Part shown: piece after piece, positions 5,671-55,446 of the stretch
How the letters are laid out: every line of letters starts with the position of its first letter
Position numbering within the stretch: the stretch's first letter is position 1
Origin: an uncultured Pseudomonadales bacterium
GTDB lineage: Bacteria; Patescibacteriota; Microgenomatia; UBA1400; CAYXSR01
Assembly (NCBI GenBank): GCA_964467735.1
Contig: CAYXSR010000001.1
Coordinates: 23,244 to 87,243 of the forward strand
Length of the DNA stretch: 64,000 nt
Reading direction: 5' to 3'
The notes under the pieces: generated by a model
Told to the model about the DNA's origin: nothing
The model's input: only the letters and a program-made list of their open reading frames with translations
The model's database searches: none
Made by a program: the position numbers and the translations under genes

Positions 5671-5947
5671 CTAGGAAGCTGAAATGGTGGGGTATTCATC
5701 TGAATACTCAGGAAAGTCCAGACAGCAGGAGACAGGGTGTCTGTCGCAAGACAGAACGTGAAAGCGCTGGTACAAGCCACAGAGACAACGACTCCCCTTA
5801 GCAATAAGGTAGAGGGTGAAAAGAGGTAATTCCCCCCGCTGCAACCTCCGAATGGTCCGTTATGAGCATGTTTCCGCCAGGACTGAAGTTAGAGGGCATA
5901 GAGAAATACCATTTTAAAACAGAATCTGGCTTATTAACTTCCTAGGT
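5671..5947 (+). ncRNA. rnpB: RNase P RNA (bacterial type, rnpB)
   Basis: ORF-free stretch that is GC-rich against the AT-rich background. Contains universal RNase P elements: GGAAAGTCCAGAC (P4 5' strand), AGGGTGAAA-like GGTAGAGGGTGAAAAG, and ACAGAATCTGGCTTAT (P4 3' strand, ACAGAAcCcGGCTTAt in E. coli). Termini cctaggaagct and aacttcctagg pair as the P1 helix. Confidence 0.85.
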
Positions 5948-6956
5948 TTTTCTTGAAGTCAGAGAAGCGAAAATTGGAAAGGTAAAATTCCTCAAAAATA
6001 ATTTTAAAGGTCAGTAATGCGGGAATCGCTAAAACTGCACCACCAACACTTCCTAATTTAAAACCAATCATCAAGGTAATAATTGTTATTAACGGATGTA
6101 AACCGATTGCTTTTTGCATTACTTTTGGAACAATAAAATTATTTTCTAACTGCTGGATTAAAAAATATAAAGCAATTACGGCAAATCCCATTGTTGGAGA
6201 ATAAGAAAAACCTACTAAAGCAGCCGGCACTGCAGAAACTGTCGGCCCAATATTAGGAATTAATTCAAGGATACCGGCAATAATTGCCAAAGGTAAAGCA
6301 AAATTAATAGACAACAATCTTAGACCAATGTAAGACATTAAACCAATTATAAACATCAAAAATATTTCTCCTCTAACCCATCCACCAAGTTTTCTTTCAA
6401 ACTTTTCTATCAACTCCTCTATATCTCTATCCTCTTTATTAGAAAATAAAATTTTTAAATACTTTTTAAGGTTTTTTCTTTCCATTAAAAAATAATAATT
6501 AATAACTGCAAAAGCAAAAATTTTAACAATATTAGAAAAAGTAGAAACAATTATTTTTATAATATTTCCTGGTAACTTAGCTAATTCACTACTATAATCT
6601 TTCCATTGAAAATCTATTGTTTGAAACAAGCCATTCTTGGCAAAACCATTGATAAATTCAGGAAAATATTTTAAAAGAGCACTTATTTGAGACACAACGG
6701 CCGGAATAAGAGATATTAAAGAACCAATAAGAAAACCAAATAAAATTATATAAACAATGAATATTGCTACCCCACGAGGAATTTTAAGCTTTTCCATTCG
6801 ATTAATAATTGGTGATAAAGCTGAACTAAAAATTATTGACACAAATAATAGAAGAATTATCTCTCTAATCTGAAAAAGTAACCAAAGAAAAATTAGAAAA
6901 AAAATAGTAAAGATAATAGTTTTACGGGAAATCGCTATTCTTCTAAGACGTATCAT
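5934..6956 (-). CDS. AI-2E family transporter (PerM/UPF0118-like permease)
   Basis: 340 aa, about 8 TM helices. N-terminal and central region pattern typical of PF01594 proteins. Confidence 0.65.
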   Translation of the reverse strand: MIRLRRIAISRKTIIFTIFFLIFLWLLFQIREIILLLFVSIIFSSALSPIINRMEKLKIPRGVAIFIVYIILFGFLIGSLISLIPAVVSQISALLKYFPEFINGFAKNGLFQTIDFQWKDYSSELAKLPGNIIKIIVSTFSNIVKIFAFAVINYYFLMERKNLKKYLKILFSNKEDRDIEELIEKFERKLGGWVRGEIFLMFIIGLMSYIGLRLLSINFALPLAIIAGILELIPNIGPTVSAVPAALVGFSYSPTMGFAVIALYFLIQQLENNFIVPKVMQKAIGLHPLITIITLMIGFKLGSVGGAVLAIPALLTFKIIFEEFYLSNFRFSDFKKNLGS

Positions 6957-7056: not shown

Positions 7057-8133
7057 TCATTTTTGATTAATAAGTTTATTTAAAATTTCCCGACGTCTTT
7101 TCTTTTCAACAAAAGGAATATTGTCTTCAAGCCTATAAGCTGCTGTTCCGGGTCTTGGAGAATATTTAGCAATATAAGCTAAACAAAATCCTATTTGCTT
7201 ACAAAGTTTAACTGTATTTTCAAACTGTTTTTTTGTCTCCCCAGGAAAACCAACAATGATATCGGTACCTATTTCAATATCGGGAATTTCTTTTTTAATT
7301 TTCTTTACTAATTTCAAATATTGTTCAGAGGTATATTTACGATTCATTTTCTTTAAAATCTCATCGTCTCCAGATTGCACTGGTAAATGTAAATAACGTT
7401 CTATCTTAGGTAACTTTAAGACCTGAATAATACCATTTGATAAATCATGAGGGTTTGAAGTAAAAAATTTAATTTTCTTAAGACCCTTAATTTCGTTTAA
7501 CAAGGACAAAAGAATAGCAAAGTTATTTTTATATCTTTTTTTCAATTCTTCAATTTTTTCCTGTAATAATTTATTTTTTACTTTTATGTCTGAATTTTTA
7601 TGATAACTATTAACATTCTGACCTAATAAAGTAATCTCTTTAATCCCTCTTTTAACAATCATTTTAACTTCACAAAGAATTTCTTCTATTGGTCGTGATT
7701 TTTCTCGGCCACGCGAAAATGGAACAACACAATAAGAACAAAGATTATTACATCCTTCCATTATTTGAACCCAAGCATGTTTTTTATTTTTCCGCTGCGG
7801 GTCTAAGCTGCTATTTATTAATCTTTTTAAAGGACTAAATTGAACGTTCTTTGGAAATTCTTTTTTTAACCATTCTTTATCATGATATAAAATACAACCA
7901 GTAATAATAATTTGTTTTTGTTTTTTAGTCTTTTGCAGATTTCTTATTGCTCCCAAAACTTTGTCTTCTGCGGCTCGTCTAACTGAACAAGTATTTATTA
8001 TCACTAAATCTGCTTTCTGCTTAGTGGAGGCTAATTGATATCCTTTTTTACGAAAATAAGCGGCGATTCGCTCTGAATCTGCCTCGTTCGCTTGACAACC
8101 AAAAGTAATAATAAAATAGTGTTTGTTTTTCAT
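7057..8133 (-). CDS. radical-SAM methylthiotransferase (MiaB/RimO/MtaB family), apparently lacking the C-terminal TRAM domain
   Basis: N-terminal MTTase domain FGCQANEADSE. Radical SAM CxxxCxxC is CNNLCSYCVVP. Only 358 aa. Confidence 0.75.
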   Translation of the reverse strand: MKNKHYFIITFGCQANEADSERIAAYFRKKGYQLASTKQKADLVIINTCSVRRAAEDKVLGAIRNLQKTKKQKQIIITGCILYHDKEWLKKEFPKNVQFSPLKRLINSSLDPQRKNKKHAWVQIMEGCNNLCSYCVVPFSRGREKSRPIEEILCEVKMIVKRGIKEITLLGQNVNSYHKNSDIKVKNKLLQEKIEELKKRYKNNFAILLSLLNEIKGLKKIKFFTSNPHDLSNGIIQVLKLPKIERYLHLPVQSGDDEILKKMNRKYTSEQYLKLVKKIKKEIPDIEIGTDIIVGFPGETKKQFENTVKLCKQIGFCLAYIAKYSPRPGTAAYRLEDNIPFVEKKRRREILNKLINQK

Positions 8134-8216: not shown

Positions 8217-9305
8217 ATGAAAATAATTGAGCTCAGAAGATTAACTGCTGAAAAAATTATTGATCTGGCTGTCAAGACTTTAAAAAAGGGCGGTTTAGTT
8301 ATTTATCCCACCGAGACTTGCTATGGTATTGGTGCTGATGCCACTAACCATGCCAGTATTGATAAATTAATTAAATATAAAGGTGAAAGAAAAAATAAAC
8401 CAATTTCAGTAATCGTAGCTAATAAAAAAATGGCTCAAGAGTATGTTTTTATTAATAAAACTGCTGATAACTTATACAAAAATTTTCTTCCTGGAGCATT
8501 AACGGTTGTATCAAAAGGAAAACATAAAGTAGATTTCCGCTTAGAATCAAAAGAAGGAAATCTTGGAATTCGTATTCCCAAAAATAAGATCGTTTTGGGG
8601 ATAACCAAAAAGTTTGGAAAACCAATCACCGCTACTTCTGCCAATATTTCTAATGAAAAAACTCCTTACCAAATAAGCGACATTTTAGACTCTTTATCAC
8701 TTAAGAAAAAAAATCTTATTGATCTCATTATTGATTCTGGAAAACTTCCCAAAAATCCACCCTCTACAGTCGTGGATACAACTTTAAATGACATTAACGT
8801 TATCCGTCAGGGAACTATTAATTTCGACAAACAATCAACAAAAAGTATTATTACTAAATCTGAGATAGAAACAAGAAAATTTGCTCAAAACTTAATGACA
8901 AATTACTTCAAATATTTAAATTCTTATTGTATTATCTTTGCTCTACAAGGAGAATTAGGAAGTGGTAAAACTCAATTTTGTAAGGGGATTGGTCAATTTT
9001 TAAAGATAAAATATCCAATCACTTCTCCGACTTTTATTTTATTAAAAGAATATCAATTTAATTTTAAAAATAAGAAAAAATTTTTCTACCATATTGATAC
9101 TTGGCGAATAAAAAATGATGATGAATTAGGAGAAATTGGTTTAAAAAAAATGATTAAACCAGGCAATATTATTGCCATTGAATGGCTTCAAAAAGCAAAA
9201 ACTTTTTTAGATAATTTCAAGAAACGTAACAAAGTAAAAATTATTTGGTTAGAAATAAAATACGGTAATAAATTAAACCAAAGAAAAATTAAATATTATG
9301 AATAG
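8217..9305 (+). CDS. fusion protein: threonylcarbamoyl-AMP synthase TsaC (Sua5/YrdC domain) + t6A ATPase TsaE (YjeE)
   Basis: N-terminal half has YrdC motifs YPTETCYGIG and ATSAN. C-terminal ~140 aa has TsaE motifs GELGSGKTQF (Walker A), SPTFIL and HIDTWR. Confidence 0.8.
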   Translation: MKIIELRRLTAEKIIDLAVKTLKKGGLVIYPTETCYGIGADATNHASIDKLIKYKGERKNKPISVIVANKKMAQEYVFINKTADNLYKNFLPGALTVVSKGKHKVDFRLESKEGNLGIRIPKNKIVLGITKKFGKPITATSANISNEKTPYQISDILDSLSLKKKNLIDLIIDSGKLPKNPPSTVVDTTLNDINVIRQGTINFDKQSTKSIITKSEIETRKFAQNLMTNYFKYLNSYCIIFALQGELGSGKTQFCKGIGQFLKIKYPITSPTFILLKEYQFNFKNKKKFFYHIDTWRIKNDDELGEIGLKKMIKPGNIIAIEWLQKAKTFLDNFKKRNKVKIIWLEIKYGNKLNQRKIKYYE

Positions 9306-10353
9306 TATAAAAATTTTAGCTATCGACACGTCTTGTGACGAAACTTCAGCTGCTGTTACTTTTAGTGATAAAGTAATGAGTAATATTGTCTGGTCACAAA
9401 TAGAAATCCATAAAACATGGGGTGGTGTTGTTCCTCATTTAGCAAAAAGAGCTCATCAAGAAAGAATTGATAATGTAGTAAAAAATGCACTTAAAAAAGC
9501 AAAGATAAGTTTGAACGAAATTGATTGCTTTGCCGTTACTCAAGGACCTGGATTAGCTCCAGCTTTAGAAGTAGGTATTAAAAAAGCAAAAGATTTGGCC
9601 TTAAAATTTAAAAAGCCATTAATTGCCATAAATCATATGGAAGGTCATCTTTTATCATGTTTTGCTAAAAACAGTAAAGGAAATAATTATTTACCAAAAA
9701 CTAAGATTGAATTTCCAATTCTAGGATTACTCATTTCTGGTGGACATACCCAATTAGTTTTAATGAAAAATTTTGGTCAATATAAAATTTTAGGAGAAAC
9801 ATTAGATGATGCGGCTGGGGAGGCTTTTGATAAAGTAGCTAAAATGCTTAACTTAGGTTATCCTGGAGGTCCAATAATCGAACAACTAGCTAAACAAGGC
9901 AATCCTCATAAATTTAATTTCCCCTTTCCTATGTCTCGACATCCTGGCTTAAACTTCAGCTTTTCTGGACTAAAAACCGCTTGTCTTTATCAATTAAGAA
10001 AAATTCCAGAAAAAAATAAAACAAAAGAATTTTTAGCAGATTTTAGCGCTTCTTTTCAATTTGCTTTAACTAAATCAATTACGATTAAGTTAAAAATTGC
10101 TCTTAAAAATTATCAACCTACAATGTTAGTTTTAGGCGGAGGAGTTATTAGTAATTTTTTCGTAAGAAGAAAAGTCAGACAAACAGCTAAGAAATATTCT
10201 GTCCCTGTTTTTATTCCATATAGTAAAAAATTACTAACTGATAATGCTGCTATGATTGGGATCACTGCTTTTTATAAATCAAAACGGAAACAATTTATTA
10301 AAAATATTGAAAAACTAGATCGACTTCCCAATTTGAATTTTAACTCTTTATAA
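9298..10353 (+). CDS. tsaD: tRNA N6-adenosine threonylcarbamoyltransferase TsaD (Kae1/Gcp family)
   Basis: ILAIDTSCDETSAAV N-terminus. HMEGHL metal-binding motif. Confidence 0.9.
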   Translation: MNSIKILAIDTSCDETSAAVTFSDKVMSNIVWSQIEIHKTWGGVVPHLAKRAHQERIDNVVKNALKKAKISLNEIDCFAVTQGPGLAPALEVGIKKAKDLALKFKKPLIAINHMEGHLLSCFAKNSKGNNYLPKTKIEFPILGLLISGGHTQLVLMKNFGQYKILGETLDDAAGEAFDKVAKMLNLGYPGGPIIEQLAKQGNPHKFNFPFPMSRHPGLNFSFSGLKTACLYQLRKIPEKNKTKEFLADFSASFQFALTKSITIKLKIALKNYQPTMLVLGGGVISNFFVRRKVRQTAKKYSVPVFIPYSKKLLTDNAAMIGITAFYKSKRKQFIKNIEKLDRLPNLNFNSL

Positions 10354-11494: not shown

Positions 11495-12007
11495 TTATTG
11501 ACCTTGTCCGCTCATCATCTCCTCTATCGTCATAAAGTTAACATTATTGGGCAAATCAAATCTAGAATCAAGAATAACTGCTGGTACACAATTATATTGC
11601 ATGTCGCTAGGTGGCGCCCCACTATTCTCTGTACTTTCTGATTCCCACCAATCTTCATCTGTATCTTCAAAACAAGTTTTCATTCCCTGTGGACTAACTT
11701 TATCCCATACCCACATACAATTTTCTTTCATTAATAAAAATCCTTCTTTACCTTCTTGATTCATTTCGGCATAATAATTTTTTCCTTCTATATAACCAGT
11801 TCCAAAAAATTTATCATCTTTTTTCCAAGTACATTTAAAAGGAACTCCTTTCATTATTGCCTCTTTTAGAGTACCACTAAAACTTTCTTGTTTTTTATCT
11901 GGCGATTCTGAACCTTCATTCTTTTTTGAAGAGAGACTACATCCGCTTAATAAGAAAAAAGTTAAAAGAACTATAGAAACTAAAATAATTTTTTTCAATT
12001 TAATCAC
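11495..12007 (-). CDS. secreted lipoprotein of unknown function (Trp/Cys/acidic-rich)
   Basis: Signal peptide with lipobox LLSGC. Mature part has 4 Cys and many Trp/Asp/Glu. Confidence 0.5.
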   Translation of the reverse strand: MIKLKKIILVSIVLLTFFLLSGCSLSSKKNEGSESPDKKQESFSGTLKEAIMKGVPFKCTWKKDDKFFGTGYIEGKNYYAEMNQEGKEGFLLMKENCMWVWDKVSPQGMKTCFEDTDEDWWESESTENSGAPPSDMQYNCVPAVILDSRFDLPNNVNFMTIEEMMSGQGQ

Positions 12008-12021
12008 CTCCCTAGATAATA

Positions 12022-14556
12022 TTAATTAATTTTTAAATTTTTTCCATTCCTTCCATTATCTGAAATTTTAAAAAACATTAATTTAACTAATTCAGTTACT
12101 ACAAAATAACTCACTACTAATCCTAATATTATTGTTAATTGTCTTGATTGAGGAGAAATGAAACTAAAAACTTTTTGTCCTTCAGGGAGAAGAGGCAAGC
12201 CAATGGTTAACAGAGCAGCAAGACTAATAAACCCACCTAAAATTAAAGAAGGTGATTTTGCTTTCAAAAAGAACAGTCTAGTTCTAATTGAAAAAATGAA
12301 AACTAGCTCTGTTAAAATACTTTCCATATACCAACTAGTCTGTAAAAACTTAGTCGACCATTTAGAAAAAATAGCAAAGGTTATAAAGTCGAAACCACTG
12401 CTTACTAAACCCAAAACCACCACTAAATATAAAATCGATTTAAGATCATAACTCTGAGGTTTCTTTACCTCAGTTTCGTCAACATTATCACTCGCAATCG
12501 CAATCATGGGAAAATCAGATAAAAGATTAACTAACAATATCTGGGTAGGTAACATTGGTAAAACGTTTATCATTAAAGAAGCCGCTGCTACAGCATAAAA
12601 ATTACCGAAATTTGCTGATAGACTAGCGATAATATATTTAGTAGTATTCACAAAAATCTCCCTACCTTCTTTTATTCCATCAATAATTATCTTTAAGTCT
12701 TTTCTCAATAAAATAATATCAGCAGCTTCTCTAGAAACATCGGTAGCCTCTTGAACTGCTAAAGCCACATTTGCTAATTTTAAAGCTGGGGCATCATTAA
12801 TCCCATCACCTAAAAACCCAACCTTATATTTCTTCTGTAAAGATTGAATAATTTCATATTTTTGTTGTGGGGAAACTCTAGCAAAAACTTTACATGACTC
12901 AATAAACTTTTGGCGTTTCTGAAAAGATAGTTTATCTAACTCGCTCCCTGTTATTATTTCTTTTTGATCGCTAATTAATCCAATATTATTAGCTACTGCT
13001 TGAGCAATCTCTTTTCTGTCTCCGGTTAGAATCTTAATTGTTATACCTAATTTTTGAGCTTTTTCAACTGCCTCATTAACACTTTTTTTAATCGGATCAA
13101 CAAAGGAAATTAAACCGATACATTTCAATTCCTTTTCTGCTTTTTTTAAATCAGAAGGTTTTTTAGTTAAGGTCCCTTTAGCAATTGCCCAAACTCTTTT
13201 TCCTTCAATTCCTTTTTCAACCATCCATTTTTCTAATATCTTTTTTTCTTTAGAGGACAGTTTACATAACTCTATTATTGTCTCTGGTGCTCCTCTAGTT
13301 ATTACTTCATATTTTTCTCTTCTTTCCAGTAGGGTTGTATCTCTTTTTCTTTCTGGATCAAAAGGAATATTTTCCTGTTTTTTATATTCTAAAAGAGTTT
13401 TCTTCTTTTCTAATTTTCTTTCTAAAATTGCAATGTCAAATGGGTTTGTTAATTCTTTTTTTTCAGAAAGAAATGAGCTACCCAAACAGGCATAAAAAAC
13501 TGGATCTTCTTTGTATAAAGAAAAAGTTTCTGAGACTTTCATGCTATTTTCTGTTAACGTTCCTGTCTTATCAGTACAAAGTACTTCTATTCCTCCGAGG
13601 TCTTCAACAGCGGCTAATCTTTTTACTATGACATGTTTCTTTGCCAATTTTAAAGCTCCTCTTGAAAAAGCAAAAGTTGTAACTACCGGTAGAGCTTCAG
13701 GAATTGCGCTTACCACTAGAGCAATAGAAAAGAGCGTTAAATCTCCTATGTTCACTTCAAGTCCTTTCACTAATAAGTTCCCAAAAAACATCAAGACGAT
13801 TGTTACAATAACTAAACGTAGGATAAATTTACTAAATTTGGCAATCTCTTTTTCAAAAATACTTTTTCTAGCAGTTTCTCCAGTAAGTTTAGCAATGTTC
13901 CCTAGGACAGTATCCTTGCCAGTCGTTACTACCAAGCCTAACCCTTTTCCTCTCACGACTGTAGTGCCTGAAAAAACCATATTAGTCGCTTGATGAACTT
14001 CTTTCGCTTTATTGTCCAAAACATCATCTGTTTTTTCAATCGTAACTGATTCTCCTGTTAATAAAGACTCGTCTAATGCTAAACTTTTGGCTTGTAATAA
14101 TCTCATATCAGCTGGAACAATATTTCCTGGTTCTAAAATAACCACATCTCCTATCACCAACTCTTCACTGCTAATTTCTGTTTCTGCGTCATCTCTTTTA
14201 ACCTTTATTTTCTTAGTTAAGTGTTTCTTTAAAAGTTTCACTGCCTTCTCAGATTGATATTCCTGGTAAAAACCCAACACTGTATTAATAAATACAAACA
14301 ACATAATCATCGCTGAATCCCAATACTCTCTTAATAAGAAAGCAAGAACTGAGGCACCTAAAAGAAGATAAATAAATGAGGATTTAAGCTGACGAAGTAA
14401 AATATTCCAGATTCCTTTTTCTTTAATAGAGAACTTATTTGAACCATTCTTTTTTAATCTATCTTGAGCTTCTTGATTAGTTAACCCTTCTAAACTGCTT
14501 GCAAGTTCTCTTATAATCTCTTCTGATTTTCTAGAAACATATTTAGCAAAATCCAT
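12022..14556 (-). CDS. cation-transporting P-type ATPase (type II/III, Ca2+/Mg2+-like; no heavy-metal CPx motif)
   Basis: TGES, PEAL, the DKTGTLT phosphorylation site, TGD, GDGINDAPAL. 844 aa with 8-10 TM helices. Confidence 0.85.
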   Translation of the reverse strand: MDFAKYVSRKSEEIIRELASSLEGLTNQEAQDRLKKNGSNKFSIKEKGIWNILLRQLKSSFIYLLLGASVLAFLLREYWDSAMIMLFVFINTVLGFYQEYQSEKAVKLLKKHLTKKIKVKRDDAETEISSEELVIGDVVILEPGNIVPADMRLLQAKSLALDESLLTGESVTIEKTDDVLDNKAKEVHQATNMVFSGTTVVRGKGLGLVVTTGKDTVLGNIAKLTGETARKSIFEKEIAKFSKFILRLVIVTIVLMFFGNLLVKGLEVNIGDLTLFSIALVVSAIPEALPVVTTFAFSRGALKLAKKHVIVKRLAAVEDLGGIEVLCTDKTGTLTENSMKVSETFSLYKEDPVFYACLGSSFLSEKKELTNPFDIAILERKLEKKKTLLEYKKQENIPFDPERKRDTTLLERREKYEVITRGAPETIIELCKLSSKEKKILEKWMVEKGIEGKRVWAIAKGTLTKKPSDLKKAEKELKCIGLISFVDPIKKSVNEAVEKAQKLGITIKILTGDRKEIAQAVANNIGLISDQKEIITGSELDKLSFQKRQKFIESCKVFARVSPQQKYEIIQSLQKKYKVGFLGDGINDAPALKLANVALAVQEATDVSREAADIILLRKDLKIIIDGIKEGREIFVNTTKYIIASLSANFGNFYAVAAASLMINVLPMLPTQILLVNLLSDFPMIAIASDNVDETEVKKPQSYDLKSILYLVVVLGLVSSGFDFITFAIFSKWSTKFLQTSWYMESILTELVFIFSIRTRLFFLKAKSPSLILGGFISLAALLTIGLPLLPEGQKVFSFISPQSRQLTIILGLVVSYFVVTELVKLMFFKISDNGRNGKNLKIN

Positions 14557-14623
14557 CTTTTTTATTATACATAAACTAATAATTAAAAGTCATAGGAGGA
14601 AGTATTACTGATAAAAAACTAGA

Positions 14624-15100
14624 TTACTTGAGTAAAAAAAATATCCAATTACCAATATTATAGCTTATTAAAATGACTAATATTGCAATGAAAAGATGTT
14701 CGGATATCACTAGTAAAGGATTCTTTTTTCTCTTTTTAGAAATAAAAAAGCTCAACATGCTTAGTAAGAACATTCCCCAAACAAAACTTAAAAGTAATCC
14801 TGTTAATAAATTAAAAAACAAAAAGGGAGAAATAAAGCTAATAGCGAAAAAAAATTTAGAAAGAAAAGTAATAATTGTAGCCTTCCATACTTCTTTTTCT
14901 GGTTCCTTGTGTTGAGCTTCTTCGGCCGTATGAATACCTAACGAATCAGAAAAAGCATCCGAAATAGCAATTATTAAGATACTACTAATTATAATAGTTT
15001 TCGATTGAGTACTAGCATAAAGACCAACTATCAATCCAAGGGTAGTAATTACTCCAGAAGTTAAACCAAAACTAAAACCTGCTTTTAGTGAATTACTCAT
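14624..15100 (-). CDS. small membrane protein, VIT1/CCC1 (DUF125)-like
   Basis: 158 aa, 4-5 TM helices. Weak resemblance to the VIT family membrane core. Confidence 0.35.
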   Translation of the reverse strand: MSNSLKAGFSFGLTSGVITTLGLIVGLYASTQSKTIIISSILIIAISDAFSDSLGIHTAEEAQHKEPEKEVWKATIITFLSKFFFAISFISPFLFFNLLTGLLLSFVWGMFLLSMLSFFISKKRKKNPLLVISEHLFIAILVILISYNIGNWIFFLLK

Positions 15101-15103
15101 TTA

Positions 15104-15177
15104 GGTGCGCCTGCTTGGATTCGAACCAAGGACATCTACTTTATAAGAGTAGCGCTCTACCACTGAGCTACAGGCGC
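15104..15177 (-). tRNA. tRNA with anticodon UAU (tRNA-Ile, AUA decoder)
   Basis: Reverse complement folds as a canonical cloverleaf: GCGCCTG acceptor, AGTGGTA D-loop, TTCGAAT T-loop. Anticodon stem CTACT/AGTAG with loop C-U-UAU-A-A. Promoter immediately upstream. Confidence 0.75.
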
Positions 15178-15183
15178 TTAGCA

Positions 15184-15212
15184 TCTTAGTAACTAGTCTT
15201 TATTTTATCAAA
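15184..15212 (-). promoter_or_regulatory. sigma70-like promoter TTGATA-N17-TAAGAT (minus strand) immediately upstream of the tRNA
   Basis: On the minus strand: TTGATA, 17-nt spacer, TAAGAT, then GC and the tRNA 5' end. Confidence 0.45.
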
Positions 15213-15296
15213 TTGGAAATGTTTTGTCTTTTAATAGAAGAAAAGTTAATATCGCAATAATTAATAAAAAAATGATTAATCGTAAAGAGGCTTTTG

Positions 15297-16859
15297 TCAT
15301 AGTATGTATTTTTTTTGATTGTGCCAAAAAAGAAAAACAAAACCTATTAAACCAATAACGATGGGAACTCCCAAAATATTCAAATATTTATAAAATTCTC
15401 TTTCTTTATCTGTTAATTCTTTTAGGGGACGAGTGTCTTCTGCTTTGATTCTTATCTTAGCAAATTCTTGTCCATTAGCTAAATACTCCACTAAATTAAC
15501 AAAAAAATATAGATTTTCTGGTGCTCTAGTTATCATTCCTTCGTTAACAAAATCTGCATCAGCAATTAGAGCAAATCTAGTTTTGTCTATCTTATCAATA
15601 AATCTTTCTTGTTCCAACTCTAAGGGTTTGTCTTTGTCTTTAAAAAAGCTTTCTAATTTTCCATCAAATATAACCGCTAAGTTTTTACTTTTTCCTTCTT
15701 TTAGATTGAAATCTTGAGTCGGATCCAGATTAATATTTTTTTCTTCTGTCCATGATTCATTCGAGGAAGATATTAGAGGAATAATTCTTGAATCATTCTG
15801 ATCATATTCTATCCAAGAAGTCCAAGGAAAAACTAAACTTTGTAAATCGCTAGTAATCGGACTAGAGTAATTAATATTCTCCGGCTTTATCTTAACCCAG
15901 AAAGGATAAGGAATAAAGAACATTGATATTCCACTACTAAAATTGGCTTTTTCATTAGAGGTATCTAAAACAAAACCACTTTTTAAATTTACACCATAGC
16001 TAGACAATAAATCTTCTAATTTATGATCTGCTTTTAACACTTGGAGATTTTCGGAAACTTTCTGAGTCTCTAACAAAAAAATAATTGGTTTTCCTTTCAT
16101 TAAAAATTGATCCAGAAGATATTTTTCTTTTATGGTAAATTCTTGATCGGGACCGACAATTATTATAATATCAAAACTGTCAGGGATTAATTCCGATTCT
16201 TCTTGGTCTAAATTAATAAATTCTGTCAGGAATTGATCAGCTAATACGCTTTTTAATAAAGACTCTTGATAAATATTAGTGCTATCAGTTATTTGCTCAC
16301 CATGACCGATTACAAAACCAACCCTTGGTTGTTTGTCTTGAGTAATTTTATGAATTTTCGAGGTAAGTTGATACTCTAAATCACTAGTTCTATCGACTAA
16401 TGGAGTTGTCTCTATCTCATCGTTAAATAAAAAAGCTAAACCAAAAAAACCCTGAGTTAGTTCAACCTTGTCTTTCTTTAAATCAGAAAATTGAAGAGGG
16501 GGAATGCCTAATTTTTGGGCTTCTTGCTTACCTTCATCATTATTATCAACATCAACCCATTCTATTCTAATTTTTCCTTTTGATACGAATTGATATTCCA
16601 TCAACCAATCTTTTAGTACCTGTTTAATAAATAAAAAACGGGAAGGTAAGTTTTGAGAACTAAATACTTTTATATTAATAACGCCATCTAAGTTCTTTAT
16701 TGTTTTTTTTGTTGTTGGTGACAGACTATACTTTCTATTAGAAGTTAAGTCTAATCTTAAAGGATAAAACCAAAAAAGAATACTGATAAACAATAAAGTT
16801 ATAAAGAATATTATTAACTTTTTTTTCTTAATTAGTTTTGTTATCTTCTTAAATTTCAT
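15297..16859 (-). CDS. GldG-like auxiliary component of an ABC-2 type transport system
   Basis: N- and C-terminal TM anchors with a large extracytoplasmic domain. Operon with an ABC-2 permease and ATPase. Confidence 0.6.
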   Translation of the reverse strand: MKFKKITKLIKKKKLIIFFITLLFISILFWFYPLRLDLTSNRKYSLSPTTKKTIKNLDGVINIKVFSSQNLPSRFLFIKQVLKDWLMEYQFVSKGKIRIEWVDVDNNDEGKQEAQKLGIPPLQFSDLKKDKVELTQGFFGLAFLFNDEIETTPLVDRTSDLEYQLTSKIHKITQDKQPRVGFVIGHGEQITDSTNIYQESLLKSVLADQFLTEFINLDQEESELIPDSFDIIIIVGPDQEFTIKEKYLLDQFLMKGKPIIFLLETQKVSENLQVLKADHKLEDLLSSYGVNLKSGFVLDTSNEKANFSSGISMFFIPYPFWVKIKPENINYSSPITSDLQSLVFPWTSWIEYDQNDSRIIPLISSSNESWTEEKNINLDPTQDFNLKEGKSKNLAVIFDGKLESFFKDKDKPLELEQERFIDKIDKTRFALIADADFVNEGMITRAPENLYFFVNLVEYLANGQEFAKIRIKAEDTRPLKELTDKEREFYKYLNILGVPIVIGLIGFVFLFWHNQKKYIL

Positions 16860-21915: not shown

Positions 21916-21988
21916 CGGGGTGTAGCGCAGTTGGTAGCGCGCACGCATGGGGTGCGTGAGGTCGCCGGTTCAAATCCGGCCACCCCGA
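21916..21988 (+). tRNA. tRNA-Pro (anticodon GGG)
   Basis: CGGGGTG/CACCCCG acceptor with C1:G72, AGTTGGTA D-loop, TTCAAAT T-loop. Anticodon loop A-U-GGG-G-U with G37. Confidence 0.8.
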
Positions 21989-22056
21989 CAATCGCAAAAT
22001 CGTCATATTCGTCTTCTAAATATGGTTTAATTGTTCTATTTTAATAAATATTTGGT

Positions 22057-53190: not shown

Positions 53191-55446
53191 TTAATCTGTT
53201 TTGATTTCTATATTAATATTTTTTAAATTATAAGGAATGTTTTTTCTAATTAATAATTTTTGAGGAGTTAATAAAATTTCTGCTTTACTAAAATTAGGTA
53301 AAGTTTTTAAATATGCTTCTGCTTCCACGGGTTTAAGTCCTTTTAAATTTTCTCTTATTTGTTCGATATTTAATCTAGGAATAAGCTTTATTTTTGCATC
53401 AGTTTGTAAAAATACTGTGTTTTTCTTAGTGCTAGTTTCTATAATCTCAAAATCTATTTGTGAATTATCAAAATCGTAGCCTTCTGGGATAGATTCAGCA
53501 AAAATATCTTTTAAGAGAGATGATAATTCTTTAGTTTCATAAACAAAACCGGTTAATTTTAATTTTAATTCCAAACTAATCTTGTCTGCCTCATCACCCT
53601 CTTGAGCAGAAAATTTTTTCTCTAGAACTTCTATTTCTTCAGATATAATTATTTGTTCTGATGAAGAAATCTTACTCTTAATTTCTTGTTTACCTTTTTC
53701 TATTAATTCGTCGGTAAGTTCTGCTAATAAATTCTCCATATCTTTCTCATCAACAGCTTTAATTTGTCTACTCATACCCCCACTCAAACCTTCATCAGTT
53801 TTAGCACTATATAATGATGATGGATATTCCTTAAAAGTAAAATCACTACCAGCAGATAAATTATATTCTGCACCAATAGAAGCAGCTACAACTTTAACTT
53901 GTTGTTTCCCATAAACAATATTTTCTCCTTCTTCGGTAGCCTCGCTTGATTTGGAAGCAACCGTTACTTCTTCGTCTAAAAGAAATTTCAAATCGTCGCC
54001 ACCAATTAAAACAGCTCCCTTATTAAAAACTTTCTCGGTATCTGTTTTATTGAAAATTGTTATCTCGCCTGTGGCTTTATCGCCAATAAGTTTTTCCCCA
54101 GTTGTTTCTTTTGACTTATTACCATTAACTTCTTCTTGCACTTCATTAGCTTTCAAAAAAAATGAATCATCCTCTATTTTTGATTCTGAGGCTAAAGTAA
54201 CTCCTATCTCTTTATCTAAATTTTTGGGGGAAACAAAAATTAATATTTTTGCTTTTGGTAGATACCAAAAAGTGGCAAAAGCCAAAATTGTCAAAAAACC
54301 TAAAAATAATAATAAAAGACTTAAGAACATAAATTTTTTCTTCCTATTTTTAAAAGAAAATGAAAACAATCTAAAAGAAGACAAAACTCTTTTTATTCCT
54401 CTTATAATTAACAGTGGGTTCAGGCTAAATTTCGTTTTCTCTAGATTTCTACCTGTTATTTGTATTTCTGGAGAAACCGAACGAAGATTATCTAATTCTT
54501 CTTTAGTTACCTTCTGTTCTGGTTCAACAGTGGGTAGTTCTTTACTATCTAAAATATCGCCTCCAACTTTGAATCCTAGTTCTTCTGCTCCGGTTATTGA
54601 TTCTGTCTGTTCTTGTTCTTCATCTGGTGTTTCTGAAGAAGTTTCTTCTTTTTCTTTTGTCAATTCTTTAGTCTCTTCCTCTACAATTTCAAAACCTAAA
54701 GATTTGGCTATTTCTGCTCCTCCAGCAACAACTACCGCTTTAACAGCAATATTTGACTCTAATGTTTCTATTTTAGGAAGATGTAAAAAATTGAGTTCCG
54801 CCTGCCAATCAAAAGAGATCAATTGTTGTTTAGCTTCTTCAAAGTCAACTATCCCATCAAAAACAATTATTCTAGCTGGAAAAGTTTTGTCTTTACCAAA
54901 ACGATTTAATCCTTCATTAACATCAGCAGCTAAATCTTCGCTCCTCCCAACTAACTGTGATTCTTTGATTCTTCCAAATTCTACCCAAAAAATTGTTGCT
55001 TGAGTCTCTTCTAAACCAACAAAAATTGCATTAACAGGAACGCCTTCTTCTTTTTTTAAATACTCTAAAAGAGCTTCTAAAGTAACTACAAAACCTAATG
55101 GTTTTAAAGCTAGCTTCTCACATAAAGATTTTAGTAAAAGCTTTTTACTCGCTATTATCTGAGAACCTGAAGTCCACTCTTGAGGTAAACCAAAAATGAT
55201 TGCTTTTGGCTCAGGATCAAGTCCTTCACCGGCACTACTGATTGTTTTATCAACTGCCTGAAGAAAAGATTCTTCACTTTCACCATCCCATTCTTCTGTA
55301 GAACTCAATTTTAAAGTTACTGTTTTCCCTTCTTTTACCGCCCAAACAGCAGATTTAACAGTTTCTTGAGCAATTTCTAAAGCAAAAAAAGTCTCTTGTT
55401 GTCCTTTCTTAGTTGCAAATCGAGAGATAATATTTTTCAATTCCAT
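53191..55446 (-). CDS. bitopic membrane protein: N-terminal cytoplasmic degenerate actin-like (ASKHA; PilM/FtsA/GspL-like) domain, acidic linker, single TM, large extracytoplasmic domain
   Basis: Residues about 15-250 show the actin-fold pattern: FALEIAQETVKSAVWAV for the first hairpin, ...LGFVVTLEALLEYL, GLEETQATIFWV in place of DxGxxxT, VVVAGGAEIAKSLG. TM at about residues 350-375 (FMFLSLLLLFLGFLTILAFATFWYL). About 375 aa outside. Confidence 0.45.
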   Translation of the reverse strand: MELKNIISRFATKKGQQETFFALEIAQETVKSAVWAVKEGKTVTLKLSSTEEWDGESEESFLQAVDKTISSAGEGLDPEPKAIIFGLPQEWTSGSQIIASKKLLLKSLCEKLALKPLGFVVTLEALLEYLKKEEGVPVNAIFVGLEETQATIFWVEFGRIKESQLVGRSEDLAADVNEGLNRFGKDKTFPARIIVFDGIVDFEEAKQQLISFDWQAELNFLHLPKIETLESNIAVKAVVVAGGAEIAKSLGFEIVEEETKELTKEKEETSSETPDEEQEQTESITGAEELGFKVGGDILDSKELPTVEPEQKVTKEELDNLRSVSPEIQITGRNLEKTKFSLNPLLIIRGIKRVLSSFRLFSFSFKNRKKKFMFLSLLLLFLGFLTILAFATFWYLPKAKILIFVSPKNLDKEIGVTLASESKIEDDSFFLKANEVQEEVNGNKSKETTGEKLIGDKATGEITIFNKTDTEKVFNKGAVLIGGDDLKFLLDEEVTVASKSSEATEEGENIVYGKQQVKVVAASIGAEYNLSAGSDFTFKEYPSSLYSAKTDEGLSGGMSRQIKAVDEKDMENLLAELTDELIEKGKQEIKSKISSSEQIIISEEIEVLEKKFSAQEGDEADKISLELKLKLTGFVYETKELSSLLKDIFAESIPEGYDFDNSQIDFEIIETSTKKNTVFLQTDAKIKLIPRLNIEQIRENLKGLKPVEAEAYLKTLPNFSKAEILLTPQKLLIRKNIPYNLKNINIEIKTD

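Follow-up and report, generated by a model that had tools for sequence, protein, structure and literature searches.

A tRNA-Ile with an encoded UAU anticodon, a likely decoder of AUA in a Microgenomates-type bacterium, and its family in the Patescibacteria

Introduction

According to textbooks and recent reviews, almost all bacteria need lysidine, and hence TilS, to decode AUA, and isoleucine tRNAs with a UAU anticodon have been reported in fewer than 20 bacterial species or genomes. The published counts comprise nine species without tilS, 19 species that have a TAT tRNA gene and a set of 17 genomes in which tRNA-Ile(UAU) replaces tRNA-Ile2(CAU). The known bacterial examples are Mycoplasma mobile, haemoplasmas, Bifidobacterium, Neorickettsia and some species that possess both systems. 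Here, we describe a tRNA-Ile(UAU) gene on the minus strand of a 64-kb stretch of contig CAYXSR010000001.1 (the whole of which is referred to as the window), which belongs to a member of the Patescibacteria, or candidate phyla radiation (CPR). This gene very likely specifies a functional, vertically inherited isoleucine tRNA with an encoded UAU anticodon that decodes AUA, a major codon in this genome.

The tRNA-Ile2(UAU) of M. mobile (PMC3575796) shares with the present tRNA the encoded TAT anticodon, A37 and A38, as well as a small AT-rich genome in which AUA is very frequent, and the same logic would be expected in both cases, with isoleucyl-tRNA synthetase (IleRS) accepting U34 and AUG being avoided without lysidine. 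Of the two, however, only M. mobile has been shown to lack tilS and tRNA-Ile2(CAU) and to leave U34 unmodified; Arg865 of its IleRS, which contacts the wobble position, is critical, and its ribosome discriminates between AUA and AUG (PMC3575796). The M. mobile tRNA also resembles tRNA-Ile(GAU) and arose in one branch of Mycoplasma, whereas the family described here spans many CPR classes. Bifidobacterium and Neorickettsia are further bacteria with a TAT-anticodon tRNA-Ile and are reported to lack tilS, but they pair this tRNA with a horizontally acquired eukaryote-type IleRS2. A tRNA-Ile with a TAT anticodon is likewise found in Lactobacillus casei, L. plantarum, Cyanothece and Ferrimonas, although tilS is demonstrably present in those species (PMC3575796).

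The canonical system of TilS and tRNA-Ile2(CAU) serves the same codon, AUA, and the isoleucine-type acceptor pairs G3-C70, C4-G69 and C5-G68 are common to tRNA-Ile(CAT) and the present tRNA. The canonical gene, however, encodes C34 and depends on TilS, whereas T34 is encoded here, so that no conversion of cytidine to lysidine is needed. This canonical system also exists inside the CPR, in Southlakia epibionticum. Outside the bacteria, the tRNA-Ile(UAU) of Nanoarchaeum equitans, of Korarchaeum and of the eukaryotic cytosol carries an encoded UAU instead of a modified C34, as here, and Nanoarchaeum is likewise ultra-small and host-dependent; these tRNAs nevertheless belong to other domains of life, work with archaeal or eukaryotic IleRS and represent non-homologous systems. 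Eukaryotes modify both U34 and U36 of their tRNA-Ile(UAU) to pseudouridine.

Results and discussion

The tRNA gene and its anticodon

ARAGORN, run on the 64-kb window, identified a tRNA-Ile(tat) at 15104–15177 on the minus strand. The Rfam covariance model RF00005 matched 15177–15106 with 77.6 bits (gathering score 29, E = 2.6e-15), the match spanning model positions 1–71 with zero non-canonical pairs. The gene has the sequence GCGCCUGUAGCUCAGUGGUAGAGCGCUACUCUUAUAAAGUAGAUGUCCUUGGUUCGAAUCCAAGCAGGCGCA, followed by CC and then by T. The mature tRNA body (15177–15106) is 72 nt long and has its discriminator A at 15106; because the genomic CC at 15105–15104 is succeeded by T (3′ end ...GCGCA-CC-T), the CCA end is only partly encoded. 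The seven-base anticodon loop (15147–15141) reads C32 U33 U34 A35 U36 A37 A38. The anticodon U34-A35-U36, at 15143–15145 on the minus strand, was read from the sequence and from the covariance-model alignment, which, together with ARAGORN, places U-A-U at positions 34–36 (window 15145–15143). An earlier note made from the sequence alone had proposed a minus-strand tRNA with anticodon UAU in a CU-UAU-AA loop; ARAGORN and the Rfam fold bear out both the tRNA and its loop, and the covariance fold gives no other triplet at positions 34–36. Two Logan assemblies made independently of each other, SRR14802573 and SRR14802572, contain the identical tRNA gene together with its downstream genes, so the gene is not an assembly artefact.

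The window genome has about 31% G+C, with values of 29–36% along the window, and nearly all genes lie on the minus strand. They include a ribosomal-protein operon, rpoBC, recA, the gene for RNase Y and one for a short AlaRS. The nearest named relatives of its RpoB, at about 70% identity, belong to the Microgenomates group, Candidatus Beckwithbacteria and the Patescibacteria group. In addition, the S5 gene runs into the beginning of the L15 gene (30358–31261), with no uL30 gene between them, a loss that is typical of CPR. From these RpoB relatives and the missing uL30 gene, the host is a Microgenomates-type member of the Patescibacteria. All 4-kb bins of the window have a negative GC skew (−0.04 to −0.26), which, like the strand bias of the genes, is in keeping with the G/C disparity between strands reported for UBA1400, an order of the Microgenomates (Beckwith- and Collierbacteria; PMC7143001).

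Isoleucine identity and the meaning of AUA

Residues A73, A37 and A38 and the pairs C4-G69 and U12-A23, which are reportedly identity elements of Escherichia coli tRNA-Ile, can all be read from the sequence of the tRNA. The acceptor stem contains the pairs G3-C70, C4-G69 and C5-G68. According to Silva et al. (2006), G3 or A3 paired with C70 or U70 separates tRNA-Ile(CAT) from tRNA-Met and tRNA-fMet (C3-G70), and C4-G69 and C5-G68 are both very frequent in tRNA-Ile(CAT). The combination of the three pairs therefore indicates an isoleucine-type tRNA and not a mutated methionine tRNA. Together, these features mark both the acceptor stem and the D stem as isoleucine-type, in agreement with the assignment made in the earlier note.

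Codons were counted over the 65 open reading frames (ORFs) of the window, which contain 19,339 codons. The expectation that AUA would be abundant held: it accounts for 434 of these codons, equivalent to 22.4 per 1000 and to 24% of the isoleucine codons, and AUG is rarer (15.4 per 1000). In the block of ribosomal-protein and rpoBC genes, ATA still makes up 22.5% of the isoleucine codons. A frequency of this magnitude falls within what a recent TilS study classes as 'high AUA'.

The meaning of the codon was assessed at the ATA sites of rpoB, a small sample of 13 codons compared with 119 homologues, all from Patescibacteria. At these sites the homologues have I in 43%, V in 24%, L in 8%, T in 7% and M in 6% of cases. 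The distribution resembles that at ATT/ATC sites and differs from that at ATG sites, which have M in 87.5%. The predominance of I, V and L over M at the AUA sites indicates that AUA is read as isoleucine in this genome.

Distribution and conservation of the tRNA family

Homologues were sought with a restrictive tRNA pattern in which nothing was specified but the D stem, the CTTATAA loop, a variable region of 5 nt and the T loop. After calibration on viral contigs, the pattern was run on one genome per GTDB species, where it matched at least 119 loci. ARAGORN confirmed tRNA-Ile(tat) in all 119 of the matches listed. In their record titles, at least 74 of these loci carry CPR names from many classes, including Shapiro-, Woyke-, Curtiss-, Roizman-, Dojka-, Chisholm-, Levyi- and Pacebacteria as well as Jackson-, Sung-, Magasanik-, Nealson-, Wildermuth-, Andersen-, Berkel- and Peregrinibacteria, CPR3 and Minisyncoccia. 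The matches listed without a CPR name consist of 19 third-party-annotation (TPA) metagenome-assembled genomes (MAGs) labelled 'uncultured Gammaproteobacteria', ten without a name and 16 from other phyla (seven of them Planctomycetota).

The taxon labels of the TPA_asm 'binchicken/SRP' MAG records (L215, L216, L219, L304, L318, L322 and others) are unreliable. Loci labelled 'Gammaproteobacteria' have CPR tRNA neighbourhoods and a tRNA up to 96% identical to that of the window, and two labelled 'Saccharibacteria' encode an FtsH of the Wildermuth-/Andersenbacteria type. A 'Methanoperedens' label among the TPA_asm records is also at odds with a CPR-type gene content.

The closest copies among the matches listed are those of L252 (99% identity) and L318 (96%), followed by Levyibacteriota, Chisholmbacteria and others (92–94%). 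In these copies the anticodon arm, the variable loop and the T arm are the same, and the acceptor stems differ by compensatory changes. The consensus fold of a 21-sequence alignment is a cloverleaf in which 13 of the 21 pairs show changes on both sides, with a single broken cell; the D arm, anticodon loop and T loop, being fixed by the search pattern, are uninformative in this covariation test. By this comparison, the window tRNA is a member of a conserved, selected family. The earlier note had described an encoded UAU anticodon as rare in bacteria. The small published counts agree with this, but within the lineage of this organism itself the UAU tRNA is widespread.

An encoded UAU tRNA-Ile in bacteria is in itself already known, but the breadth of its occurrence across the CPR appears to be undescribed: no literature linking lysidine or TilS with Patescibacteria or CPR, or describing AUA decoding in CPR, was found in a library of 8 million papers. 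The UAU tRNA is a conserved and common component of the Patescibacteria, which make up a large share of bacterial diversity. The window tRNA is thus ordinary for its lineage; it is the lineage-level pattern that could overturn the view of a near-universal TilS.

Two further arrangements were seen among the loci. In Microgenomates-type genomes a cluster recurs in which two CAU tRNAs, one initiator-like and one elongator-Met-like, accompany tRNA-Ile(UAU), so that all three AUA/AUG-reading tRNAs are encoded together (L213, L216, L228, L238, L260, L277, L280, L292, L294–L296, L298, L323, L324 and L328). In a Flavobacterium sp. MAG (L229:3276–3465), a gap of about 40 nt separates a tRNA-Ile(GAU) from a tRNA-Ile(UAU) on the opposite strand, and the two are identical except for the change of G34 to T. 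This pair looks like a recent duplication followed by an anticodon mutation, similar to the tilS suppressor of Bacillus subtilis.

Association with ftsH in Parcubacteria

In nine of the 119 matches listed ftsH is found within 8 kb of the tRNA, about nine times the frequency expected by chance, and in six of these nine loci it lies directly upstream on the same strand. An independent check used six Parcubacteria loci for which similarity of FtsH and length of the contig were the sole selection criteria; the FtsH queries came from the two 'Saccharibacteria'-labelled tRNA/ftsH loci, and the resulting table covers Parcubacteria only and does not include any TilS-positive locus. All six of the loci selected in this way contain tRNA-Ile(UAU) no more than 1.3 kb downstream of ftsH, beside tRNA-Val(GAC). 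The tRNA is therefore a fixed chromosomal feature in these Parcubacteria lineages and not a sporadic acquisition.

In Parcubacteria-type genomes, tRNA-Ile(UAU) follows ftsH directly, in most cases with tRNA-Val(GAC) next in line, at the loci L218, L219, L226, L245, L262, L263 and L332–L337 (for example, L219:573–2483 and L333:10001–11971). In L219, L333 and L334 the stop codon of ftsH lies inside the tRNA gene. One of these loci, L334, carries an insert (11845–16486) that encodes a serine recombinase (Resolvase/Recombinase/Zn_ribbon_recom), contains about 4.5 kb of additional genes, one of them for a Peptidase_C25, and separates tRNA-Ile(UAU) from the tRNA-Val(GAC) that is adjacent to it in sister loci. 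The insert resembles a mobile element that has used the tRNA as its integration site.

The lysidine system

Neither tilS nor ileS nor a CAU tRNA is present within the 64-kb window. A TilS hidden Markov model (HMM) was built from the TilS sequences of PDB entries 1NI5, 3A2K and 1WY5, with no CPR TilS as a seed, and recovered each left-out member across phyla with E values of 1e-40 to 1e-51. Applied to the window and to about 1.7 Mb of loci, most of them from CPR, this HMM identified no TilS-like ORF. At its usual site upstream of ftsH, tilS is absent from all 15 of the loci that carry the UAU tRNA, and the genes that do lie beside ftsH in these loci encode an S1-domain protein, a histidine kinase, TruD, RNase HII, L32 and others. 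Neither tilS nor hpt was found upstream of ftsH in the Parcubacteria-type ftsH–tRNA-Ile(UAU) loci, and no PF01171 match occurs within 10 kb in the six annotated loci. The CAU tRNAs that cluster with the UAU tRNA are almost all of the fMet and elongator Met types and not of the Ile2 type, with one exception, L261. An IleRS gene was found neither in the window nor in the fetched loci of relatives, in which the class I synthetases near the UAU tRNA are LeuRS and ValRS.

The cultured CPR bacterium Southlakia epibionticum provides a comparison. Its TilS (294 aa; PF01171 at 6.8e-45) is encoded directly upstream of FtsH, and it has a single annotated tRNA-Ile, located in the rRNA operon (PMC10633639 supplement). 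The CPR are thus not uniformly devoid of tilS. Since the TilS-bearing Southlakia has only this one annotated tRNA-Ile, the comparison suggests that the TilS and UAU-tRNA systems tend to exclude each other.

The earlier note took the tRNA to be read without lysidine, and on this point the indirect evidence from relatives is mixed. Taken on its own, the proposition that tRNA-Ile(UAU) is the main or only AUA decoder, in a genome that lacks the TilS/tRNA-Ile2(CAU) pair, has about the same chance of being right as of being wrong. The wider proposition, that most Patescibacteria, among them many lineages of the Parcubacteria and Microgenomates types and this genome, decode AUA by an encoded tRNA-Ile(UAU) and have lost both TilS and tRNA-Ile2(CAU), is a tentative one and falls just short of an even chance. 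With similar reserve, a trace of that switch may be seen in the tilS–ftsH order of Southlakia as opposed to ftsH followed by tRNA-Ile(UAU), with no tilS, in other CPR.

If TilS is truly missing, then it is not near-universal in bacteria, the discrimination of AUA from AUG in the absence of any modified cytidine turns into a superphylum-wide question to which the ribosomes and IleRS of CPR may hold the answer, and the annotation of CPR tRNAs and models of their codon usage should expect Ile(UAU). Were this to be true of most Patescibacteria, no other group of bacteria that manages without lysidine would come close to them in size. If TilS is present, tRNA-Ile(UAU) would be an ordinary redundant isoacceptor.

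Alternative explanations

Several observations weigh against a lysidine-free genome or against the interpretation of the tRNA as a vertically inherited isoleucine tRNA, and they lend the alternatives their force. The alternative of greatest weight is that the genome also contains TilS and tRNA-Ile2(CAU), so that AUA is read by both a lysidine tRNA and the UAU tRNA; the latter would then still be functional, as in the arrangement proposed for L. casei, L. plantarum, Cyanothece and Ferrimonas, but would not constitute a lysidine-free solution. Bacteria with both systems are documented (PMC3575796), and the TilS of Southlakia was scored as essential in two of three calls (PMC10633639 supplement). 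Moreover, in Sungbacteria RIFCSPLOWO2_02_FULL_51_17 (L261:4689–4860) an Ile2-like CAU tRNA with the acceptor pairs A3-U70, C4-G69 and C5-G68 adjoins tRNA-Ile(UAU) in a 15-tRNA array, possibly placing both AUA decoders in one CPR genome. The window represents only about 6% of a genome of about 1 Mb, and absences from it say little. The zero count of TilS in about 1.7 Mb is also weak evidence, as only about 1.6–2 copies would be expected at random with one per genome. This zero count nevertheless points away from redundancy, as do the lack of tilS beside ftsH at all 15 of the ftsH loci with the UAU tRNA, the recurrence of the fMet, Met and Ile(UAU) cluster without a third CAU tRNA and the single annotated tRNA-Ile of Southlakia. 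A redundant decoder therefore has a considerable, though somewhat less than even, chance of being the correct description.

The tRNA might instead be an accessory one, acquired horizontally from a mobile element or phage and merely supplementing the decoding of AUA. Phages often carry tRNA-Ile(UAU), and viral contigs contain many matches to the UAU pattern (more than 120 loci with its loose and 25 with its stricter form). The ABC-transporter, VIT1 and P-type ATPase genes that flank the tRNA in the window are not conserved beside it in relatives, and integrase or recombinase genes lie beside the tRNA in the relatives L292, L324 and L334. No integrase, repeat or composition shift was seen around the gene in the window, however, and a phage-borne accessory tRNA was rejected on the conserved chromosomal slot beside ftsH and tRNA-Val(GAC) in the FtsH-selected Parcubacteria loci, on the nearest relatives listed, which are other Microgenomates-type genomes (92–99% identity), and on the persistent use of AUA in ribosomal-protein and RNA polymerase genes; acquisition of this kind is very unlikely. 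A different meaning of the gene, whether through charging with another amino acid, reassignment of AUA (for example to methionine, as in many mitochondria) or decay to a pseudo-tRNA, is extremely improbable. It draws on the fact that the identity of the tRNA is deduced from its sequence, in which the 29–41 pair is A-U and the C29-G41 pair of the E. coli isoleucine set is absent. Reassignment was rejected because the RpoB AUA sites align with I, V and L and not with M, and a pseudo-tRNA because of the perfect 77.6-bit cloverleaf and the compensatory changes within a conserved family; the acceptor and D-stem features, which are of the isoleucine type and unlike those of tRNA-Met and tRNA-fMet, likewise argue against a change of amino acid.

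With the tRNA taken as a functional, inherited reader of AUA, the following pathway can be envisaged. Transcription would start in the intergenic region that follows the ABC-transporter operon and probably extend through the genes for VIT1 and the P-type ATPase. The RNA would then be trimmed and its CCA end completed by a CCA-adding enzyme, and A37 would be converted to N6-threonylcarbamoyladenosine (t6A) by the TsaC, TsaE and TsaD enzymes encoded 5 kb away. IleRS would charge the tRNA with isoleucine, and U34 would pair with the third-position A of AUA. AUG would be left to tRNA-Met(CAU) through restricted wobble of U34, through competition or through properties of the ribosome, as in M. mobile. 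In this scheme, the attachment of isoleucine by IleRS, the state in which U34 is found and the way in which AUG is avoided are all inferred.

Putative promoter and neighbouring genes

Upstream of the tRNA, an ABC-transporter operon ends at 15297, leaving a spacer of 119 nt. A consensus scan of this spacer gave two overlapping σ70-like promoter matches on the minus strand (15183–15230). One of them, TTGATA-17-TAAGAT (15211–15183), agrees with the consensus at 9/12 positions and stops 5 nt short of the mature 5′ end; the other, AAGACA-17-TAAAAT (15230–15202), also matches at 9/12 positions and has a TG extension. Promoter-like sites are no more common in the region than in shuffled sequence (five found, 4.8 expected). 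The claim of the earlier note that the tRNA has its own promoter is thus matched by a consensus-like site, TTGATA-17-TAAGAT, but gains nothing from the number of such sites, and a promoter of its own is plausible for this gene.

Downstream of the tRNA, the ORF list and Pfam (PF01988) place a VIT1-family membrane protein at 14624–15100 on the minus strand, the ATG of which lies 3 nt past the CC of the tRNA. A P-type ATPase gene (12022–14556, minus strand) follows. No terminator-like site was found on the minus strand between 14500 and 15500, and the lack of such a site in the gap between the tRNA and the VIT1-family ORF makes co-transcription likely; the tRNA is thus probably co-transcribed with the VIT1 and P-type ATPase genes.

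Genes with a predicted role in the maturation of the tRNA are also found in the window. An RNase P RNA of the short class A type is located at 5671–5949 on the plus strand (Rfam RF00010, 107.1 bits against a cutoff of 100), and the enzyme to which it belongs would be expected to cut any 5′ leader of tRNA-Ile(UAU). This RNA is 279 nt long and lacks two blocks of the consensus, one of 42 and one of 24 positions. A TsaC-TsaE fusion protein of 362 aa (8217–9305, plus strand) is recognized by matches to NCBIfam TIGR00057 and TIGR00150 on one protein, and is followed by TsaD (9298–10353, plus strand; NCBIfam TIGR03723). We infer that these proteins modify A37 of ANN-reading tRNAs, including tRNA-Ile(UAU); t6A37 has a role in recognition by IleRS (Taniguchi et al., 2013; PMC3575796). 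Just upstream of the TsaC-TsaE gene, on the other strand, lies a gene for a short MiaB/MtaB-like methylthiotransferase of 358 aa (7057–8133, minus strand). The TsaC-TsaE, TsaD and MiaB/MtaB-like proteins all act on A37 of tRNAs.

The window contains two tRNAs according to ARAGORN, the second being tRNA-Pro(GGG) at 21916–21989 on the plus strand, just upstream of recA-recX-rny and a 94-aa ORF. This tRNA-Pro(GGG)-recA-recX-rny arrangement is kept in about 35 metagenome relatives (L123–L178). Among 80 metagenome loci, tRNA-Ile(UAU) and the ABC-transporter, VIT1 and P-type ATPase genes never occur at the recA neighbourhood of relatives, and synteny around recA is uninformative on the conservation of tRNA-Ile(UAU). 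Elsewhere in the window, a 751-aa ORF (53191–55446, minus strand) with no Pfam or NCBIfam match adjoins a sortase gene and may encode a sortase-anchored surface protein.

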